DNA of 64,000 nucleotides from Nitrospirota bacterium (GTDB taxonomy: Bacteria > Nitrospirota > UBA9217), in NCBI GenBank assembly GCA_963790205.1, contig CAWBNQ010000003.1:64001-128000 (forward strand), written 5' to 3'. The translations under genes were made by a program, and so were the position numbers. Numbering within the stretch: position 1 is the first letter of the stretch; each line of letters starts with the position of its first letter. This document shows positions 4,927 to 63,954 of this stretch, one piece after another. The notes beneath the pieces were generated by a model. That model ran no database searches, was not told the DNA's origin, and saw only the letters and a list, made by a program, of their open reading frames with translations.

Positions 4927-5958
4927 TTAAAAATCATTGATCGCGTCGATCAGGCCCCTGAGCCTGCCGAAATCGTGTCGGTTAAAGTCCATAACGAGCC
5001 TCGGCAGGTCGATGACATCGGCATCCTCCTGTTCAGCCGGGAGCGCCCCGGACGGCGCAATGTCGCCCTGGGGCAGCAGGATGTCCTGAAACGTTTCCTT
5101 CAGGACCCGAATGTTGTTCGTACTGAGCGGTGAAGTGAGCCTGAAGACGAGCTGTCCGTTCACATAGCGCATGCTGTGATACCGGCTGTAGAAGCGGTTG
5201 ATCTTCGCGACCGCCGCTTCCGCCGATTCGACGCGCTCGAAAAGAGCAAGGTCCGAGGGGCTTATCAGGTTCCGGGACAGCAGCTCGTTTTCCATGAACT
5301 CGATGAATTCCGTCCAGTACGAGCGGTCCGGGTCATCGATGAGCACCAGGGGCAGTGGATTGCGTTTGCCGGTCTGGACGAGGGTGAGCGTTTCCATGGC
5401 CTCATCGAGGGTGCCGAAGCCGCCGGGAAAGAGCGCGACCGCGTCCGCCTCCTTGAGAAAGGCCACTTTTCGGTTGAAGAAATATTTGTACGTGATGAGG
5501 CGCGGGTTCCCTTCAAGCACGGGGTTGGGGTGCTGTTCGAAGGGGAGGCGGATGTTTACGCCGAAGGAATGCTCGGGCCCGGCCCCTTCGTTCGCGGCCT
5601 GCATAATGCCGCCCCCGCCGCCGGTGATGACCATGTAGCCCGCCTGGGCGAGCTTCTGCCCGAAGAGCTTTGCCATCTCATAGCTCGGCTCGCGGGGCTG
5701 GGTCCGGGCCGACCCGAAAACCGTGACCTTCCGCTTGTTGCGGTAGGGGCCGAAGACCTTGGAGGTGAAGCGCATTTCCTTGAGCGTCGTGTTCATGAGC
5801 TTGAGGTCCGCGCTGTCGTCGTCCTCCTGGCCGGCCTTGAGGGCGGCCAGGATCATCTCGCGCACGTATTCCGGCCTGCGGATGCCGTCCGACAGCTCGA
5901 TCAGTTTGTCGATGGCCTCGTCTACGCGGCCGTTCGTCCTGGTGAAGTGAAGTTGCAT
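4927..5958 (-). CDS. LOG-family nucleotide phosphoribohydrolase (TIGR00730-like)
   Basis: VTVFGSAR, ITGGGGGIM, YFFNRK, PGGFGTLDE motifs. Confidence 0.92.
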   Translation of the reverse strand: MQLHFTRTNGRVDEAIDKLIELSDGIRRPEYVREMILAALKAGQEDDDSADLKLMNTTLKEMRFTSKVFGPYRNKRKVTVFGSARTQPREPSYEMAKLFGQKLAQAGYMVITGGGGGIMQAANEGAGPEHSFGVNIRLPFEQHPNPVLEGNPRLITYKYFFNRKVAFLKEADAVALFPGGFGTLDEAMETLTLVQTGKRNPLPLVLIDDPDRSYWTEFIEFMENELLSRNLISPSDLALFERVESAEAAVAKINRFYSRYHSMRYVNGQLVFRLTSPLSTNNIRVLKETFQDILLPQGDIAPSGALPAEQEDADVIDLPRLVMDFNRHDFGRLRGLIDAINDF

Positions 5959-6236
5959 GGATTTTGCTTGCTCCTGTCGCGCTGATTTTGACGCATGGAT
6001 ACGTATAATAAGGCATTTGCTGATTTTTGTCGAGGGAAAGAAATTCAGGGCTCTTCTCCTCCTTTTGCTTTTTCAGAGACCCCCGCATCCCGTGAGCGGC
6101 GGTGCAGAACAAAAAAGGTTTTCTTCGTATCTTGGCGCCTTCGTGGCTGGACGCGGGGTTGGGAAAGGTTGCATTTGCTCCCCCTCTCTGCTACCATTGA
6201 GCATATGTACGTATAAATCGAAAGGGAGGTACGGGT

Positions 6237-6800
6237 ATGAGAAAAAGCTTGATCAGTATATTTTTCGGCATTATCTTTGTCGCGACTGCGGTCTTGAACG
6301 CGCAGGCGCAACAGATGTGCGGTTGCATGGGCGAAAAGGGCGGGGGCATGCAAGAGGGCATGGGCATGATGCACGGCATGGGCGGCATGCCGGGCGGCGG
6401 AATGATGATGGATGGTGGCCACCCCCTGTGGAAGCATCTCATGAGCCTCGGCCTCGATGATAAGCAGCTGGATGCGCTCAAGGCGCTTCGCAGCAAGACG
6501 ATGAAGGACATGATAAAAAAGAGGGCGGACAAGCAGATCGCCGGCATCGAGCTGAAAGACCTTCTCGACAAGGACCCGGTGGACATGAAGGCCGTTGAGG
6601 CATCGGTGAAAAAGAACGAGTCGCTCAAAACGGAGATGTTCCTTGCTCATATCAGGGCGCGCGAAGAGATGAAGGCCCTGCTGACGCCCGATCAGAGGAA
6701 ACGGCTGAAGGAGATGATGGAAGCGGGCTGCGGCGCGGGCTGCGGCATGATGGGCGATGCGGAACACAAGGACATGCCGATGCACCAGCACATGCCCTAA
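6237..6800 (+). CDS. Spy/CpxP-family periplasmic protein, Met/Gly-rich
   Basis: Signal peptide (AQA), LGLDDKQ and LTPDQR (LTxxQ) motifs, SD GGAGG. Confidence 0.85.
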   Translation: MRKSLISIFFGIIFVATAVLNAQAQQMCGCMGEKGGGMQEGMGMMHGMGGMPGGGMMMDGGHPLWKHLMSLGLDDKQLDALKALRSKTMKDMIKKRADKQIAGIELKDLLDKDPVDMKAVEASVKKNESLKTEMFLAHIRAREEMKALLTPDQRKRLKEMMEAGCGAGCGMMGDAEHKDMPMHQHMP

Positions 6801-6854
6801 AGAAACCAGGGATGCCCGCGCGACGGGAACGATATCCCCGGAGAGAGTGACATT

Positions 6855-6886
6855 ACCCCGCCCGCTGCCGGGAGGCGGGGTTTTTT
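6855..6886 (+). terminator. Rho-independent terminator
   Basis: ACCCCGCC/GGCGGGGT stem followed by T-tract. Confidence 0.7.
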
Positions 6887-6990
6887 AATGGTTTTTTTCG
6901 GGGTCCGGGTCTATCCCGGCCCCGGTCTTTCTCCTCTGCCATGGTATCCCCGGAATCTCCTGAAAGGAACCGTCATGATCTCTTCCGCAA

Positions 6991-7770
6991 ATGAGCGATA
7001 TGAGATATAGCCGTATTGTTCATATGATAAAATCTATATGGTCAGTGAACACCGGATCAGGACAAAAGATGTTGTTCATCGGTGTTGTTGTCATTGCCTT
7101 GTGGCTTGTCGCCGCCTTCGTCCCTGCTGGCCTGCTGCAAGCGGGTGCGCCGGACGGCTTGTTGCCCGTCCGAAAACCTGTTGCGCCCGCGTTGCCCGGA
7201 CCGGACCCCTTCACTGTTTCTTTGCCGGACAAGGGGAGTTTTCTCGTTGCCAGCCGCAGGCTCGTTGATCCCCGCTTCCAAGAGACCGTCGTCCTGCTCA
7301 TCAGCTATGGCGCTGACGGTGCGACCGGCGTCATCATCAACCAACCCACCGAGGTGCGTCTTGTTGATCTACTCCCGTCCGTGCAGGGCCTGAAGGGCCG
7401 CGCCGACGTCGTGTACTACGGCGGGCCCGTCGAGGGCAACCGGATACTGATGCTCATCCGGTCCGGAGAAAAACCGGAAGACTCACGCCGCGTGTTCGGA
7501 GACGTATACTTCAGTTCGAGCAAGAACACGCTGGAGAGCCTGCTCAATGCGCACAAGACGGCAAAGCAGCTGCGGTTGTATGCCGGGTATGCGGGGTGGA
7601 TGCCGCAGCAACTTGACGGAGAGGTGTCGCGCGGCGACTGGCTCATCGTTCACGCCGATGCGCGCTCGATCTTTGAAAAGAAGCCGTCCGAAATATGGCC
7701 CGAGCTCATTCGCCGGGGCGCAGAAATCCAGGTACGGGACGACAACAAACCGGATTTCGCGAAACGCTGA
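6991..7770 (+). CDS. YqgE/AlgH (DUF179) family protein with hydrophobic N-terminal extension; start uncertain
   Basis: LVA...DPRFQETVVLL...GVIINQP, YYGGPV, LYAGYAGW...QLDGEV..GDW. Confidence 0.88.
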   Translation: MSDMRYSRIVHMIKSIWSVNTGSGQKMLFIGVVVIALWLVAAFVPAGLLQAGAPDGLLPVRKPVAPALPGPDPFTVSLPDKGSFLVASRRLVDPRFQETVVLLISYGADGATGVIINQPTEVRLVDLLPSVQGLKGRADVVYYGGPVEGNRILMLIRSGEKPEDSRRVFGDVYFSSSKNTLESLLNAHKTAKQLRLYAGYAGWMPQQLDGEVSRGDWLIVHADARSIFEKKPSEIWPELIRRGAEIQVRDDNKPDFAKR

Positions 7771-7859
7771 CCATCATTTGCATCGGCTTTCCCCTTGGAG
7801 AAAGGCTTATGATTTCCACCGTTACAAAAGAATTGAAAATGAAGGTCTTTTAATCCCTG

Positions 7860-8387
7860 ATGAATGGAAAACCCTCCAATATCGTTCTTATCGGCATGCC
7901 CGGCTCGGGAAAGAGCACCGTGGGCGTCATCCTGGCCAAGCTGAGCGGACGGGACTTCGTCGATACGGACGTCCTCCTCCAGAAAGAACAGGGCCGCTCC
8001 CTGCAGGACATCGTCGATCGGGACGGGTACCTTAAGCTGCGCGAGATCGAGGAAAAGACCATCTTAAAGCTCGAACGCCGCCGCCACGTTATCGCCACCG
8101 GCGGCAGCGCCGTGTACAGCCATGCGGCCATGATGCACTTAAAGTCCAGCGGCATCGTTGTTCTTCTCGAGGTGGACCTGCAGACCCTGGAAAAGAGAGT
8201 TCATGATTATGAGACCCGAGGTCTTGCAAAACATCCGGACCAGAGTTTCGCTGATCTGTTTACGGAACGCCGCGTGCTGTACAGGAAGTATGCTGACATG
8301 ACCATTGCCGCCGGGAGCCTTACCCACGAAGAAATCTGCGCGAGGATCATCGAGGAGCTGAACGCAGGAAGACCGGTTGGGAAGTAG
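7860..8387 (+). CDS. aroK: Shikimate kinase
   Basis: IVLIGMPGSGKSTVG, FVDTD, VIATGGS. Confidence 0.9.
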   Translation: MNGKPSNIVLIGMPGSGKSTVGVILAKLSGRDFVDTDVLLQKEQGRSLQDIVDRDGYLKLREIEEKTILKLERRRHVIATGGSAVYSHAAMMHLKSSGIVVLLEVDLQTLEKRVHDYETRGLAKHPDQSFADLFTERRVLYRKYADMTIAAGSLTHEEICARIIEELNAGRPVGK

Positions 8388-8445
8388 CAGGAATCCCGCC
8401 CCTGCAGCCCAGGCTTCAGCCTGCGCCGAGTGCGTTATTTATGCT

Positions 8446-57478: not shown

Positions 57479-57513
57479 AAGGCCCGGCAGGGAGCATCCT
57501 GCCGGGCCTTTTT
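57479..57513 (+). terminator. Rho-independent terminator
   Basis: 13-bp stem AAGGCCCGGCAGG/CCTGCCGGGCCTT plus T-tract. Confidence 0.85.
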
Positions 57514-57657: not shown

Positions 57658-58077
57658 ATGCCTATGCAGGAACAGAAAATAGAACGCCAGGTCACAGTCG
57701 GCGTATATACCATGCCCTACGAGGCTGACCTCGTGTGGTCACTTCTCGAAGCTTTCGAAATACCGGTCTTCCCCGCGGACTATAACACCATATATATAGA
57801 TTGGCTGTATTCCAACGCCCTGGGCGGAGTAAAACTTCGGGTCAGCGAACAGGACGCAGCCGATGCGCGAGAAGTCATTGCGGGTGCCCTTGCAGATGGC
57901 GAAAAACTCCATCCGACGTATAGCGAGGGCGCATGCCCGCACTGCGGCAATAGGGATACTGCTCCAGTGGTACGCGGTCGAAAATGGGCAATAATTACCT
58001 GGCTCATCTTTATGCCAATTGTCTGGCCTTGGACACGCCTACGATGCTTGTCATGTGGGCACACTTGGCGGGCATAG
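57658..58077 (+). CDS. DUF2007-like protein with C-terminal zinc ribbon and TM
   Basis: EADL..SLLE...I......GGVKLRV...DA..A; CPHCG; CLSCGHTW. Confidence 0.78.
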   Translation: MPMQEQKIERQVTVGVYTMPYEADLVWSLLEAFEIPVFPADYNTIYIDWLYSNALGGVKLRVSEQDAADAREVIAGALADGEKLHPTYSEGACPHCGNRDTAPVVRGRKWAIITWLIFMPIVWPWTRLRCLSCGHTWRA

Positions 58078-58336: not shown

Positions 58337-61300
58337 ATGCCAAATAGAAATTGGGGCCTCATCACCTCCGGCGCTACTTTTGAGGCACTTGCAACGACCC
58401 TCATCTTCTTCGAGGATCCGAAAGCAGCACTTTTCGGCCGTCGAGGTAAAGATGGCGGACAGGATGCGCGCTCAGGCGATGGATTACGAGTATTTCAAGC
58501 TAAGCACCATGAAGATGGCTCAGCTACTAAGGCAATTGCAGACGCGAAGAGTGAAGCTGCCAAGATCGCAGAATATCGAAAACCAGGACACTTTCGATAT
58601 CTCCAGTGGAAGGGAGTAACACACTGGCGCCTTGTTACCAATGCAGTATTCAATCCCACGGATAGGCAGAGGTGGGATGTCGAGGTTGTTCCTCTCTTCA
58701 TGGCTCAAGGCTTGAACCCCGACTATTGGGAGCGGGCAAACTTAGATGGACTTCTTGACAAGCACCCTGAAGTAGATCGGTACTTCTTCCAGAATGAAAC
58801 GCGTGTTCTTCTTTCTCTTCCAGAGATTCGCGAGCGCTTGCCACAGGAAGACCCTTTTCTAAGGCGTGAAACTCTCACAACATTCCGCGGCCGAGAGGCC
58901 GAAGCAAAGTATGTTCGTTCTTTCCTGTCATCGGATGCCCTGTTCCTGGTTGTTCACGGTGAAGGGGGTATCGGAAAAACACGTCTGCTTGTTGAGGCTG
59001 GAGATGAAATCGCATCCGAGGGAGAGTGGCAAGTCTTTTGGGCGAACGTTGCAAGTATGTCATCCTCATCCACCTGGTTCGACTCCATCGTCCCCGAACG
59101 CACTACCCTATTACTCGTTGATGAACCTGATGATCCGCAGTTGCTTCGCGTCTTATCGGAGCAATTAGGCTCCCGGTTCGGTCGTACGGCAAAATGGAAG
59201 GTTGCGGTTTCTGTCCGCTCACCCAAAAATCCAGTCCTGCGATATTTATTCTCTCCGAGGGTGAAGGAGCGCGTTCAGGAGCTGCCGATAGGTGAACTGT
59301 CAGATGGGGCAGCAGAAGAAATGTGTTTCGACCTTCTTAGCTCCGGCCCTCTCAACAGCAGTCCCAGTGATTGGCGCAAGGATGCTGCTCACAAACTTGC
59401 TGCGCGTTTTTCGAATCGCCCGATCTGGCTTACGCTTGCAGTTCATGTTCTCGAGGTGCACGGAGATCTTGCAAAAGTTCCGGACACGGCTGCAGATTTA
59501 GCAGACCAATATGTAACTGAAATTATCAAGCTTCAGCAGGATGCCAACGCAGATCAGGTTCTTATGTTGCTTCAGTATATAGCACTCCTCGGGACTATAA
59601 ATCGAGAAGACAAAGCAACAATTGAACTGCTAAGAGGGGTCTGCAAAATTGAAAACGATACTGCACTTCTGAAATTATTAGCTGATCTAGTTAAACGACG
59701 TGGTCTCACGCAGCGCGGGGCGGTGCAACGGTTAGTTGAACTCAAACCCGACGTCTTACGGGATCACATACTTCTAAGCTGGCTGTCTGTCGATATCGGC
59801 TATGGTGCCGCTCCGATCCAGCCATCTGATGACGCAAAAAACATTGTAATTGGTGTTCGCGATGCTGTTCTAAAGGGGAGCATCAGCGCATTAGGGCGGA
59901 CTATTCTCACGTCATTGGCGCGAACAGAGTTTCTCCTTAGATTGTCTGGAAAGACTGTTCCTCTGCTGGATCCTTTGTTTGCCGGTATCCTTGCTGGTCT
60001 TGCAGGAACGACCGCGAGCCAACGGCTTGTGATTGCGGAAGTCCTTCAAGATTTCGCCGCGTATCGCCCTGCCGATACTGTCGAAATTAGCCGTGCTCTT
60101 CGATCTTCAACTGTAACCAGTGAAAAGACTGAAAGTTATTTTGGTAGACGCGAGATAGGCCAGGATGACATCGTTATGGCGCTGGCATGGCCTATATTTC
60201 ATGCTGCGATGGGCGCTCAGTCTCAGAGCGAGTGTGAAGTTGTACTGAAAGAACTTTGTTCTCTTGCTGAATTGGAGTCAGAAGTCGGATCGCATCGCAA
60301 AGGTGGCCTGCCTAACGATGGAAAACGAGCTGGTCAGTTAATAGGTCGTACAATAGGTGGTGGCCCACATTTTTCAGCTGATTTTACTGATGCCGCTAGC
60401 ACACTTTCGTTTCAGCTGCTTGAAGATGTCGCTGCCGTACCCGCAACACCCGCTAAAGGATCAGTTATCAAAGAATTGTTGGAGCCTACACTTTCGATTG
60501 AACGACAGCAAACCTGGAGTGAAGGCTACACAGTTCATATCAGCAGGATCATCATTCATCCAAATCATTCGGCTTGGAAGAAGCGAGAAATGGTATTGAA
60601 TCGAGTGAAAGCTATTTTAGCTTCGGAGCAAACACCACCAGCTTCGCGCAGTTTGTTATGGAGCATATTTGCTGAAGCTCACAGAACTGTTAATGTTGGC
60701 ATTAAACAGATCAACTCAGTAGAAATTCAAAAACAATTACGCAAATTATCGCTTGACGATCTTGAGTGGGCCTACCCGGTGCTTGTTCCTCGTAAGGATG
60801 ATCTGGCCGAACTGATGGCAGCGCGCGATTTATGGCACTGGCATTATCGATTTGACAGTGTTGCTGAATTCAAGGAAATAAGCAGCAAGCTAGAGGCTCT
60901 TTACGAGAGTAATAGCCTGTCAGGCGAATTTGAGCCACTCACAAGCCATGATAGATGGGAACAGCAAAGCGCTGCACATGCAGCTAAAGCAACGGCATTG
61001 GCAGCAGATGCTAGTTCATTGAGTATCGAAGATTTTCTATCTCGTGCCATAAATTATTATCGTGGTAATGAAAATGAACTCTACCACCTGTTTGGTGTCG
61101 CGGCAAACCTTGGTGCGCTTGCGGGCACACACAAAACAGTGCGAGATTTTGTACATAAGTTTCTGTCAGATGCGAACCATACTGCACGAACGGATTTTGC
61201 CATTGATGTTGCCGTAAGCTGGATTGCAACAGTGCGACGACAGGATTCTCCTCGTGCAGCTTATGATCTGATTCTCGAATTAATGAGAACATGCGGCAGT

Positions 61301-62359
61301 AATGATCAGAGAATTCGTCTAATACATCGACACTATAATGGGCTCCGTTTAGATTATAGACAAATTGAGGATGCAGAGCATGATCACCTGCGCTCACTCA
61401 GCACATTGTTCTTGGAACACAAGAAGGGGGCTGCATATATACAGGCAATCGGCTGGACATTGAATTACAAGTGGCCCGATCTCCAGGCACTCATCGAGAG
61501 GGTGTTAGACCATGTTGATCATGACCAGCTTGCAGTTTCTGTACGATGTCTTATTGAGACGGCATATTATGCAATTAGGCAAGACACATCACCCCAGCCA
61601 CCTCCAGATGGTCTAGGGCAATGGCTCCTCGATCAAGTACTGCGCTTATCGAAGTTTGATGATCTCGGCTCCAGTATTGATTGGTACATTGAAGATTTGT
61701 TAAATAGGATTGGCAAGGTTCCTGTATCATGGCTTCCGGGAGCACTTGAAAAGCGGCGCGCTATGGAAGCTGCAGATGAATCACGTGTGGTAAGAGCACT
61801 TAGTTATCATCCAAAATTGAGTAGTTTTGTCCGCCCTATTACAGCAGCCGATAAAGATAACCCTGATGCAGCTAGGGCAGTTAAATCCCTTACCAACATG
61901 CTAATTGATAAAACCGTCTTAGGATATTACCTTCCCGAAATACTGCATGATGTTGATCCAGATGGCCTGCTTGTGCCGGACGAGATTGTTTCGCGTGTTG
62001 CAGCGGCAGCAAATCGTGATGAGGTATGGTCTTATGCTAGAGTTGCTGGAACGTACGAGGTTGGAAGCACAAGCTGGCGAACTATAGCGCGGCCAGTCGT
62101 CATCCGTGCAAATAAATCGGAGAAGGCTGAAGAACGACGTGATCTGTTCGTCATTATATTACATAAAGGCATGCGATCGTGGTCCGGCTCACCGGGCCAG
62201 GTTCCGCAATTGTTTATTGATGAAGTAAACACGGCTCGTAACCTTTTAGACTCTGAAACAGAACAATCATTTCGGCCGTTTTGGGAATGGAATTTGGCCA
62301 TTGCAGAATCGGAACTAAAGGCGCAAGAAGAGCAGGCGAAGGAGATGCGTGGCGAATGA
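58337..62359 (+). CDS. Mrr-like nuclease / STAND NTPase / helical-repeat protein (Avs-like defence candidate)
   Basis: N-terminal FE(16)...DGGQD(39-43)...QAK(54-56)...LVTN; FRGRE; Walker A GEGGIGKT (residue 208); Walker B LLLVDE; long helical C-terminus ending SWSGS; AT-richer than core genes. Confidence 0.8.
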   Translation: MPNRNWGLITSGATFEALATTLIFFEDPKAALFGRRGKDGGQDARSGDGLRVFQAKHHEDGSATKAIADAKSEAAKIAEYRKPGHFRYLQWKGVTHWRLVTNAVFNPTDRQRWDVEVVPLFMAQGLNPDYWERANLDGLLDKHPEVDRYFFQNETRVLLSLPEIRERLPQEDPFLRRETLTTFRGREAEAKYVRSFLSSDALFLVVHGEGGIGKTRLLVEAGDEIASEGEWQVFWANVASMSSSSTWFDSIVPERTTLLLVDEPDDPQLLRVLSEQLGSRFGRTAKWKVAVSVRSPKNPVLRYLFSPRVKERVQELPIGELSDGAAEEMCFDLLSSGPLNSSPSDWRKDAAHKLAARFSNRPIWLTLAVHVLEVHGDLAKVPDTAADLADQYVTEIIKLQQDANADQVLMLLQYIALLGTINREDKATIELLRGVCKIENDTALLKLLADLVKRRGLTQRGAVQRLVELKPDVLRDHILLSWLSVDIGYGAAPIQPSDDAKNIVIGVRDAVLKGSISALGRTILTSLARTEFLLRLSGKTVPLLDPLFAGILAGLAGTTASQRLVIAEVLQDFAAYRPADTVEISRALRSSTVTSEKTESYFGRREIGQDDIVMALAWPIFHAAMGAQSQSECEVVLKELCSLAELESEVGSHRKGGLPNDGKRAGQLIGRTIGGGPHFSADFTDAASTLSFQLLEDVAAVPATPAKGSVIKELLEPTLSIERQQTWSEGYTVHISRIIIHPNHSAWKKREMVLNRVKAILASEQTPPASRSLLWSIFAEAHRTVNVGIKQINSVEIQKQLRKLSLDDLEWAYPVLVPRKDDLAELMAARDLWHWHYRFDSVAEFKEISSKLEALYESNSLSGEFEPLTSHDRWEQQSAAHAAKATALAADASSLSIEDFLSRAINYYRGNENELYHLFGVAANLGALAGTHKTVRDFVHKFLSDANHTARTDFAIDVAVSWIATVRRQDSPRAAYDLILELMRTCGSNDQRIRLIHRHYNGLRLDYRQIEDAEHDHLRSLSTLFLEHKKGAAYIQAIGWTLNYKWPDLQALIERVLDHVDHDQLAVSVRCLIETAYYAIRQDTSPQPPPDGLGQWLLDQVLRLSKFDDLGSSIDWYIEDLLNRIGKVPVSWLPGALEKRRAMEAADESRVVRALSYHPKLSSFVRPITAADKDNPDAARAVKSLTNMLIDKTVLGYYLPEILHDVDPDGLLVPDEIVSRVAAAANRDEVWSYARVAGTYEVGSTSWRTIARPVVIRANKSEKAEERRDLFVIILHKGMRSWSGSPGQVPQLFIDEVNTARNLLDSETEQSFRPFWEWNLAIAESELKAQEEQAKEMRGE

Positions 62360-63165
62360 GCAAATCCCTTGAGCAACGACTGCAAGATTCAATACTCGAG
62401 TTTGATGAAATGCACCAGATGTTAAACCGGAAACCGGGGGAGGTACATGCAGATGTCGAAAATGTATTACGAAGTTTTGCCAATTTACGTGACGAAGTAG
62501 CTGGTTTGATTGAGCTTATTGAAATTCGTAAGTCGGCTTTTCGCTTTCTAGATTCTCTTGAAAAGAAAGTGGATGCAAATGATAATATTTCTCTCAATGA
62601 CTTATCTCTAAAATATCACCATGTAAGATTAATCGGTGTGCAAGCTTATATTAGTACCAACTGGGCAATTGCTGACAGGATTACTGGAGTGGTCGGACGC
62701 TTACTATGCACTCCGGAGTCAGGCTCTAATGCATTGAGTCTGGCAAAAATGCCGACATTTGTTAAGCGGGATATTGCGAAGAAAGCGACCGCAGCCATTC
62801 TCGTCCAATCCGTTCGGCAAACCTTCGGGTGGCCGGTCGGGCTTTCATACGCAATTCGCAATCACTTTATTCATGACGGAGCTCAAAGTGGAGGAAAGGA
62901 TTTTTTTGAAGGCACGTCTGCGGTATCAGCTTTTCGGATATCTGATGCCGGTTGGAAGCGGATCGAGGAAAAAGCGACAACTGAATATGGCGTTAGCGAC
63001 TCCTGTCATCGTGCAGGAGCAAGATGGCCCGTTGCACCGAAAGATGATCTTCGAGTAACGTTGCAAGTTTTCGAGCAAGAAATGGATGATGCCCTAGGAG
63101 TTCTTTGGGGTTCCGCATGCCACTCATTACTTGGACATGTAGGTTTTATTCTGGGCGAGGACTAA
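62356..63165 (+). CDS. Hypothetical protein with HEPN-type RxxxxH motif
   Basis: ATGA overlap with the upstream stop and SD AAGGAG; mostly helical-looking; YAI-RNHFIH-DG at 62857-62874. Confidence 0.7.
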   Translation: MSKSLEQRLQDSILEFDEMHQMLNRKPGEVHADVENVLRSFANLRDEVAGLIELIEIRKSAFRFLDSLEKKVDANDNISLNDLSLKYHHVRLIGVQAYISTNWAIADRITGVVGRLLCTPESGSNALSLAKMPTFVKRDIAKKATAAILVQSVRQTFGWPVGLSYAIRNHFIHDGAQSGGKDFFEGTSAVSAFRISDAGWKRIEEKATTEYGVSDSCHRAGARWPVAPKDDLRVTLQVFEQEMDDALGVLWGSACHSLLGHVGFILGED

Positions 63166-63306: not shown

Positions 63307-63954
63307 ATGCATGACACTCTTTTCACAATCGGTTATTCAAACCGGTCAAGCGATGATTTAATCGCCCTTCTCAAACAACACAAGATAACCGCGCTTTGTG
63401 ACGTTCGATCCGCGCCCTACAGCAGCCGCAATCCGCAGTTCAACCGTGAGATATTCAAACAATCACTAAAACTTCATAATATCGAGTATGTATTCCTTGG
63501 TGAGGAACTCGGCGCACGGCCAAAAGACCCGTCATGCTACGTCTCGGGGAAGGCAATCTATGAAAAGATTGCAGGAACGACTTTATTTAAAAAAGGCCTG
63601 GAGCGCGTCAAGCTCGGACTTAAGAAAGGCTACACCCTTGCTCTAATGTGTGCAGAGAAAGACCCGATGACGTGTCATCGAACGATATTGGTATGCAGGA
63701 ATCTCCGCGGACAAGGCGTTGATATTCAGCATATCATCGATGATCAAACCATAGAGACGCAAACTGATCTTGAGAAGCGTTTAATTGCACAATTAAAACT
63801 TCATCCCGATATGTTCAAGGACACCGAGCCAAATACGCTCATCGAACGCGCATATGACGTGCAGGGCGACCGGATTGCGTACGTGGAGAAGGGCGAACGG
63901 GAACCGGATGAAATAGCGGCGGATACGGTGAGAGAAGAGAATGAACACTATTAA
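63307..63954 (+). CDS. DUF488 family protein
   Basis: LFTIGYSN, DVRSAPYS..PQFN, ELGARP, LMCAEKDP..CHR. Confidence 0.88.
   Translation: MHDTLFTIGYSNRSSDDLIALLKQHKITALCDVRSAPYSSRNPQFNREIFKQSLKLHNIEYVFLGEELGARPKDPSCYVSGKAIYEKIAGTTLFKKGLERVKLGLKKGYTLALMCAEKDPMTCHRTILVCRNLRGQGVDIQHIIDDQTIETQTDLEKRLIAQLKLHPDMFKDTEPNTLIERAYDVQGDRIAYVEKGEREPDEIAADTVREENEHY

Follow-up and report, generated by a model that had tools for sequence, protein, structure and literature searches.

A predicted nuclease-STAND protein and its co-inherited small partner form a conserved two-gene module, probably antiviral, in a Nitrospirota bacterium

The window analysed here is a stretch of 64,000 nucleotides from a Nitrospirota bacterium (assembly GCA_963790205.1, contig CAWBNQ010000003.1, positions 64,001 to 128,000 of the forward strand). 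Two genes overlap on its forward strand: a large gene (58337–62359), whose open reading frame (ORF) and translation give a protein of 1340 amino acids (aa), and a small partner gene (62356–63165), whose translation gives 269 aa. The ATG of the small gene at 62356 shares bases with the TGA of the large gene (62357–62359), which makes a four-base overlap, ATGA. The same ATG is preceded, at a distance of 11 bases, by a Shine-Dalgarno-like AAGGAG (62339–62344) that lies within the final codons of the large gene, and the two elements form a putative coupling junction at 62339–62359. A preliminary description of the window, made from its letters alone, had recognised both genes with their overlap, exactly as they stand, and had proposed that they encode a nuclease-armed STAND sensor and a HEPN-type protein. 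Judged from their sequence relatives, the two genes are a real, conserved two-gene module, which is probably antiviral. Neither is a chance ORF, the large protein having 196 relatives of about 1320–1340 aa and the small protein 127 close ones with lengths near 269 aa.

The large protein begins with a predicted PD-(D/E)xK nuclease domain (residues 1–160; 58337–58816). The catalytic set that had been called intact and Mrr-like (E16, D39/D43, Q54-x-K56) is read in the translation and is invariant in the 15 full-length relatives aligned, together with G40, G41, Q42 and A55. The same residues, minus G40 and A55, do not vary either among 10 proteins from a sister clade, which are about 40% identical in the nuclease part. 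A model of residues 1–175, built from 17 sequences (mean predicted local distance difference test, pLDDT, 86.9), shows a helix-strand-strand-strand-helix-strand core. Its top Foldseek match is Avs4 (8dgf_A; E 7.8e-4, probability 1.00), followed by EcoT38I, AspBHI, Cap4 and MspJI; further fold-match rows list AF1548 (8.8), MspJI and FokI (both 8.1). The Pfam model Mrr_cat finds no match in the large protein. The predicted core topology and the invariant D39, D43 and Q54-x-K56 strand motif are those of Mrr-like PD-(D/E)xK nucleases, and the N-terminal domain is, on the strength of this model, such a nuclease, nearest to that of Avs4. No other architecture carrying this domain was found among the matches listed (120 of 167), all of which belong to the same family.

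The nuclease is followed by a P-loop nucleoside triphosphatase (NTPase) module (residues ~183–480; 58883–59776), delimited by Pfam matches and Walker motifs. Both motifs named in the preliminary description are present in the translation: Walker A (residues 208–215; 58958–58981) reads G208-E-G-G-I-G-K214-T, and Walker B (residues 258–263; 59108–59125) reads LLLVD262E263. Their key residues, G208, G210, G211, G213, K214 (followed by T or S), D262 and E263, are invariant in the 15 full-length relatives. From residue 183 onward, the Pfam families AAA_16 and nSTAND_NTPase5 match all 15 members, ATPase_2 matches 13, nSTAND6 matches 10 and NB-ARC matches 8, all of these matches being below the curated cut-offs. 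By its motifs and its family matches the module is of the STAND type. The large protein thus has the arrangement of an Avs-type protein, with an N-terminal effector domain fused to an NTPase. A subgroup of the sister clade (L058, L059, L061 and L068) departs from the family in that its Walker A has another residue in place of the lysine (GNHGAGLS, as read from L058) and the nuclease residues are retained.

The remainder of the large protein, about 860 residues (59777–62356), contains no Pfam repeat or domain that our search could find. Its mean column identity is 0.46–0.66, compared with 0.66–0.81 in the N-terminal third. By analogy with Avs proteins, this C-terminal region is the putative sensor. 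Comparison of the large protein with PADLOC, NCBIfam and PDB sequences yielded no named-system match above noise. The PADLOC candidate PDC-S73 matches the nuclease core only (10 of the 15 members, best E 3.5e-5), and a match of the large-protein profile to SecA2 in the PDB (E 0.005 over a helical stretch) was rejected as chance. As a separate observation, the Argonaute-associated PADLOC model Aga_TIR-PNTD1-PNTD2 matches 9 of the 15 family members, with a best E of 3.6e-6.

The evidence that the two genes belong together is extensive. The preliminary description had made retention of the second gene by homologues a point to be checked, and the outcome is favourable. Of the 21 genome loci compared, each encoding a small-protein relative, 20 carry the large gene or a remnant of it directly upstream on the same strand (14 full-length, 3 cut by contig ends and 3 broken, namely L009, L016 and L019). 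At the remaining locus, L020, no more than a remnant is left of the small gene. In L009 the large gene is broken and the small gene intact. The sister clade, known from metagenomes and about 22% identical in the small protein, gives the same picture: the large-protein profile matches the ORF directly upstream in 28 of 34 loci, and five of the six misses have no more than 225 nucleotides of upstream DNA, the sixth being L051, described below. The junction itself is preserved as well. Where its sequence was printed (16 related loci), the four-base stop/start overlap occurs in 14, and an A/GTGA junction preceded by AAGGAGG or AAAGAGG in 15, so that the Shine-Dalgarno-like element is kept at the DNA level.

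Pairwise distances between large proteins and between their small partners are closely correlated (r 0.95 over 25 pairs; none of 999 permutations was as high), and the two proteins diverge at equal rates, the mean distance within clade A being 0.54 for both. The correlation shows joint inheritance without partner swapping; physical co-evolution is not proven by it. As far as gene order and junction sequence can tell, the small gene is, in two deep clades, an obligate partner of the large gene, to which it is coupled in translation.

In four independent decayed copies of the pair (P0286, P0298, P0318, and L019 at 5477–8393), the C-terminal part of the large protein and the first 60–130 residues of the small one are both missing. 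In three of the four, the remainder reads as a single in-frame protein, for which a recombination-prone junction and an assembly error are both candidate causes. It was considered that P0286, P0298 and P0318 might be Rosetta-stone fusions. This was rejected, as they are internal deletions that join part of the large protein to small-protein residues from ~60–107 onward.

Beyond its close relatives, the family of the small protein reaches 292 cluster representatives when 1.84 billion proteins are searched with a profile (E ≤ 1e-3), and neither the single sequence nor the profile finds a match in Pfam, PADLOC, NCBIfam or PDB sequences; the rows returned for the profile from PDB sequences, such as farnesyl diphosphate synthase and GCN4, are due to chance. 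Conservation is concentrated in a few positions. In an alignment of 29 relatives, R168, N169, H170 and H173 show no variation, and over 61 members down to 18% identity W103, Y165, R168, N169, H173 and D244 remain invariant and D107 nearly so. The AlphaFold2 model (pLDDT 83.2) is all-helical, with helices at residues 32–71, 87–117, 145–172 and 232–266. The conserved RNxxxH motif (R168-N169-H170-F171-I172-H173; codons at 62857–62874) caps the C-terminal end of helix 145–172, and residues 122–143, located between helices 87–117 and 145–172, are poorly modelled (pLDDT <50).

These features recall HEPN domains, which, according to a survey of the superfamily (PMC3710099), have at the end of helix 3 an Rx4-6H motif whose arginine is followed by a polar residue (mostly N, D or H), together with an acidic residue on helix 2 and inserts between helices 2 and 3. 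The sequence R168-N169-x3-H173 has the form of this motif, and in the predicted model the place of the motif, the helix 2–3 insert and the acidic residue of helix 2 (D107) all correspond. The closest named family is HEPN_Cthe2314 (PF18730), which appears on 11 of the 30 named Atlas matches of a language-model search. It resembles the small protein in length (about 230–290 aa), in an invariant R-N-x3-H and in an upstream tyrosine and aspartate at equal spacing, but its Pfam model matches no member of the small family tested. When the small-protein alignment is compared by hhalign with HEPN_Cthe2314 members (10 of 11 copies, taken from 10 of 401 genomes), Y98, D107, R168, N169 and H173 pair with the conserved Y97, D111, R172, N173 and H177. 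Table 1 of the HEPN survey gives no operon partner for Cthe_2314 (PMC3710099). The HEPN-MNT toxin-antitoxin arrangement differs from that of the pair, as its minimal nucleotidyltransferase partner is absent here and the STAND protein is the sole conserved neighbour; no nucleotidyltransferase Pfam match was found among the window genes scanned.

Fusion of the small-protein domain to a different nuclease was observed once. A metagenomic protein of 614 aa (L051, 4861–6705) consists of DUF4145, HSDR_N (the N-terminal nuclease of type I restriction R proteins) and a small-protein domain at residues 383–614. It has no STAND gene upstream and is the sole evaluable locus without the large partner.

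Comparison with described systems places the pair near the Avs proteins, without identifying it with any of them. Avs4, the nearest relative of the nuclease domain, reportedly acts as a single gene. Its sequence (EcAvs4, PDB 8DGF) has no profile match to the large protein beyond the nuclease fold, whether the 15 members are scanned with PADLOC at E ≤ 1 or their profile is compared with the PDB, and the putative sensor region of the large protein is unrelated to that of Avs4 by sequence. PDC-S73 is likewise different: the N-terminal ~70 positions of this model align to nuclease residues 14–80, but the model describes a single-gene candidate of 752 profile positions, and the alignment is limited to the nuclease core. 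The pair is likely, judging by domain content, to be Avs-type by function without being a sequence member of Avs4. PADLOC models named PD-lambda-4 or Avs match none of the 15 large or 61 small proteins at E ≤ 1; PADLOC 2.0.0 presumably includes PD-lambda-4 models.

The nearest described layout is that of Avs8, also called PD-lambda-4. As set out in the preprint that describes it (bioRxiv 10.1101/2025.07.02.662641), Avs8 is a two-gene operon in which an Mrr-nuclease STAND protein, Avs8A, is accompanied by Avs8B, a small protein of unknown family. The pair shares with it an Mrr-STAND gene followed by a small second gene. The preliminary description had treated nuclease-bearing Avs systems as single genes that offered no precedent for such a layout, which Avs8 contradicts. 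Its further statement that the combination was not recognised from named systems is only partly right because the Avs8 layout had already been described; what appears to be new here is that the partner overlaps the large gene, is conserved without exception together with an RNase-type site and occurs in two deep clades. The pair differs from Avs8, which was compared by description only, in that its partner is strictly co-inherited, overlaps the large gene and retains an RNase-type motif.

A 2026 survey (PMC13581612), in which the name Avs8 is also used, reports 589 STAND clades, 198 of them defence-associated, and puts the number of structurally distinct STAND families with a defence association at 90 or more. 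It may already include the large protein. Six accessions of family members have no match in the seven text supplementary files of that survey, the large tables of the 589 clades being outside this search. In a literature search, none of the papers listed (15 of 114), judged by titles and the openings of abstracts, describes this pair.

The reading that we prefer, with a probability of roughly 45%, is that of a conserved two-gene defence-island module that serves as an antiviral sensor of the Avs type and employs two nucleases. By analogy with Avs proteins, a phage protein would be bound by the C-terminal ~860 residues, and the large protein would in consequence oligomerise in an ATP-dependent manner, as Avs3 and Avs4 do. 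The nuclease domains would be brought together in this way, and DNA would be cut by proximity activation. HEPN active sites form between two copies. The assembled sensor would recruit, pair or release the small protein, the predicted HEPN-type metal-independent RNase, so that RNA would be cut alongside DNA and the infected cell would cease supporting the phage. The specific form of this proposal, in which a STAND receptor commands a DNase in cis and a HEPN-type RNase in trans, the latter licensed only upon oligomerisation of the sensor on a phage protein, is advanced tentatively. If it is true, the pair would be a two-substrate kill switch that a phage inhibitor of one nuclease alone could not disarm.

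The question has a wider bearing. NOD-like receptors have their bacterial counterparts in the Avs-type sensors, and the transfer of activation from a STAND sensor to an unfused protein is poorly understood, Avs8 being the one Mrr-STAND operon with a second gene so far described. The pair offers a coupled, co-inherited partner with a catalytic-looking motif, which makes the question testable with a few point mutants. Should the partner prove to be an RNase, the family would show one sensor driving DNA and RNA cleavage together; otherwise, a new accessory subunit would be defined for Avs sensors.

The following results weigh against the two-nuclease reading, and most of them concern the assignment of the small protein to the HEPN superfamily. 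The hhalign comparison with the 10 HEPN_Cthe2314 members gives E 0.046 and a probability of 1.2% over 84 columns, and E 0.2 when a narrower small-protein alignment is used. Foldseek comparison of the small-protein model with PDB and BFVD finds nothing at E ≤ 0.001, and such HEPN fold matches as there are score level with unrelated helical bundles, i.e., in the noise range. Pfam HEPN models match none of the 29 close and 37 distant relatives scanned. Furthermore, a partner gene need not be an effector, if Avs8 is a guide, because Avs8B was dispensable for defence against phage lambda, according to the preprint (bioRxiv 10.1101/2025.07.02.662641). The HEPN-type protein of the preliminary description is favoured by the motif, its position in the predicted model and the co-aligned residues, and the direct homology comparisons, though weak, tend in that direction. 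Neither by profile nor by fold is the match to HEPN families strong, and a HEPN-type domain is therefore probable and not shown; in our opinion the small protein is quite probably of this type.

The same results lend weight to the principal alternative, according to which this is an Avs-type system whose small protein is a cofactor, an assembly or specificity subunit or a modulator, and the nuclease in cis alone kills. The HEPN assignment is statistically weak, Avs8B is both dispensable for lambda defence and of no known family (bioRxiv 10.1101/2025.07.02.662641), and tight translational coupling suits the fixed-ratio subunits of one complex. Three observations point the other way. R, N and H never vary in 61 sequences, even at 18% identity, as is typical of a catalytic site and not of a scaffold; the small protein diverges no faster than the large one in clade A; and the small-protein domain occurs in L051 fused to another nuclease, without a STAND protein. 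We consider the cofactor explanation somewhat unlikely.

It is also conceivable that the small protein acts as a restraint, in the manner of an antitoxin or guard, so that the nuclease-STAND protein would stay inactive unless the small protein is removed or modified by a phage factor. A downstream, overlapping gene order with co-inheritance does recall toxin-antitoxin layouts, and the joint loss of the large C-terminus and the small N-terminus in the decayed copies L019, P0286, P0298 and P0318 hints that these parts belong together. However, STAND proteins, including Avs and NOD-like receptors, are normally auto-inhibited without a partner, and a conserved RNase-type motif is unexpected in a pure inhibitor. 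Moreover, an intact small gene beside a broken large one, as in L009, misfits a mere neutraliser, although a single locus is weak evidence. Such a role is, in our opinion, improbable.

The antiviral part of the two-nuclease reading draws on the genomic setting. Scanning of 124 ORFs neighbouring the 21 related loci with PADLOC gave matches (E ≤ 1e-5) within 5 kb in 10 loci. These comprise DrmA and DrmB (DISARM); LmuA, LmuB and LmuC (Lamassu) plus Upx; HEC-09 with SIR2, UvrD-type helicases and DarT; a SIR2/pAgo-like gene; type IIG restriction genes at two loci; PDC-S02; and HmaB. Two of the 10 loci have kinase matches only. Directly 3' of the pair are two DUF488 genes that match the PADLOC candidates PDC-M45B (E 8.6e-73) and PDC-M45C (E 1.3e-70), followed by a gene with a DuOB dual-OB domain. 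Judged by these neighbours, the setting is a defence island. Its composition is foreign, as had been noted at the outset for the two genes: the G+C content is 45–52% from ~57500 to ~2.1 kb past the window end and 56–62% in the flanks. The distribution of the pair is patchy, its gene being found in one of 40 relatives of the source genome, in a copy only 50% identical, while named hosts belong to Myxococcota, Bacillota, Planctomycetota, Nitrospirota, Verrucomicrobiota and Pseudomonadota. A scan of viral contigs found no relative.

That the pair is not anti-phage at all, but a STAND-regulated nuclease system for another conflict or a housekeeping task (plasmid exclusion, for example, or kin discrimination among Myxococcota), would accord with the absence of an experimental link to phages and of copies in viral contigs and with the many myxococcal hosts, which are rich in STAND proteins of unknown role, but is very improbable in view of the known defence genes nearby in 10 of 21 loci, the patchy, horizontal distribution across several phyla and a nuclease domain nearest to that of a proven antiviral sensor.

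The only plasmid match is a distant, fragmented pair on NC_014249.1 of 'Nostoc azollae' 0708 (record 2–2805), which is annotated as three hypothetical proteins. The C-terminal half of its large protein is 25% identical and its small protein 29% identical.

Some further features of the low-G+C island deserve mention. The three genes downstream of the pair, two DUF488 and one DuOB, occupy window positions 63307–63954 and continue in L023 at 942–2098 (1 to 2.1 kb past the window end), within the same island. They resemble a second candidate defence set and do not accompany the pair elsewhere. Two candidates for a third conserved gene were rejected: DUF488 occurs near the pair in none of the 21 loci, save for one weak opposite-strand match, and an ORF of 139 aa upstream of the pair has no relative in 67 other loci. 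The latter ORF (57658–58077), at the left end of the island, gives weak matches to DUF2007 and to zinc ribbons. No tRNA gene was found near the island. Its left border is marked by a terminator-like hairpin (57479–57510; a 14-bp stem and a T run) at the point where the G+C content drops, and a carboxylase gene immediately precedes this hairpin. To the right of the island, beyond the window, lie three DsbA-like (Thioredoxin_5) genes in a row, one short and two full (L023, 2289–4756).

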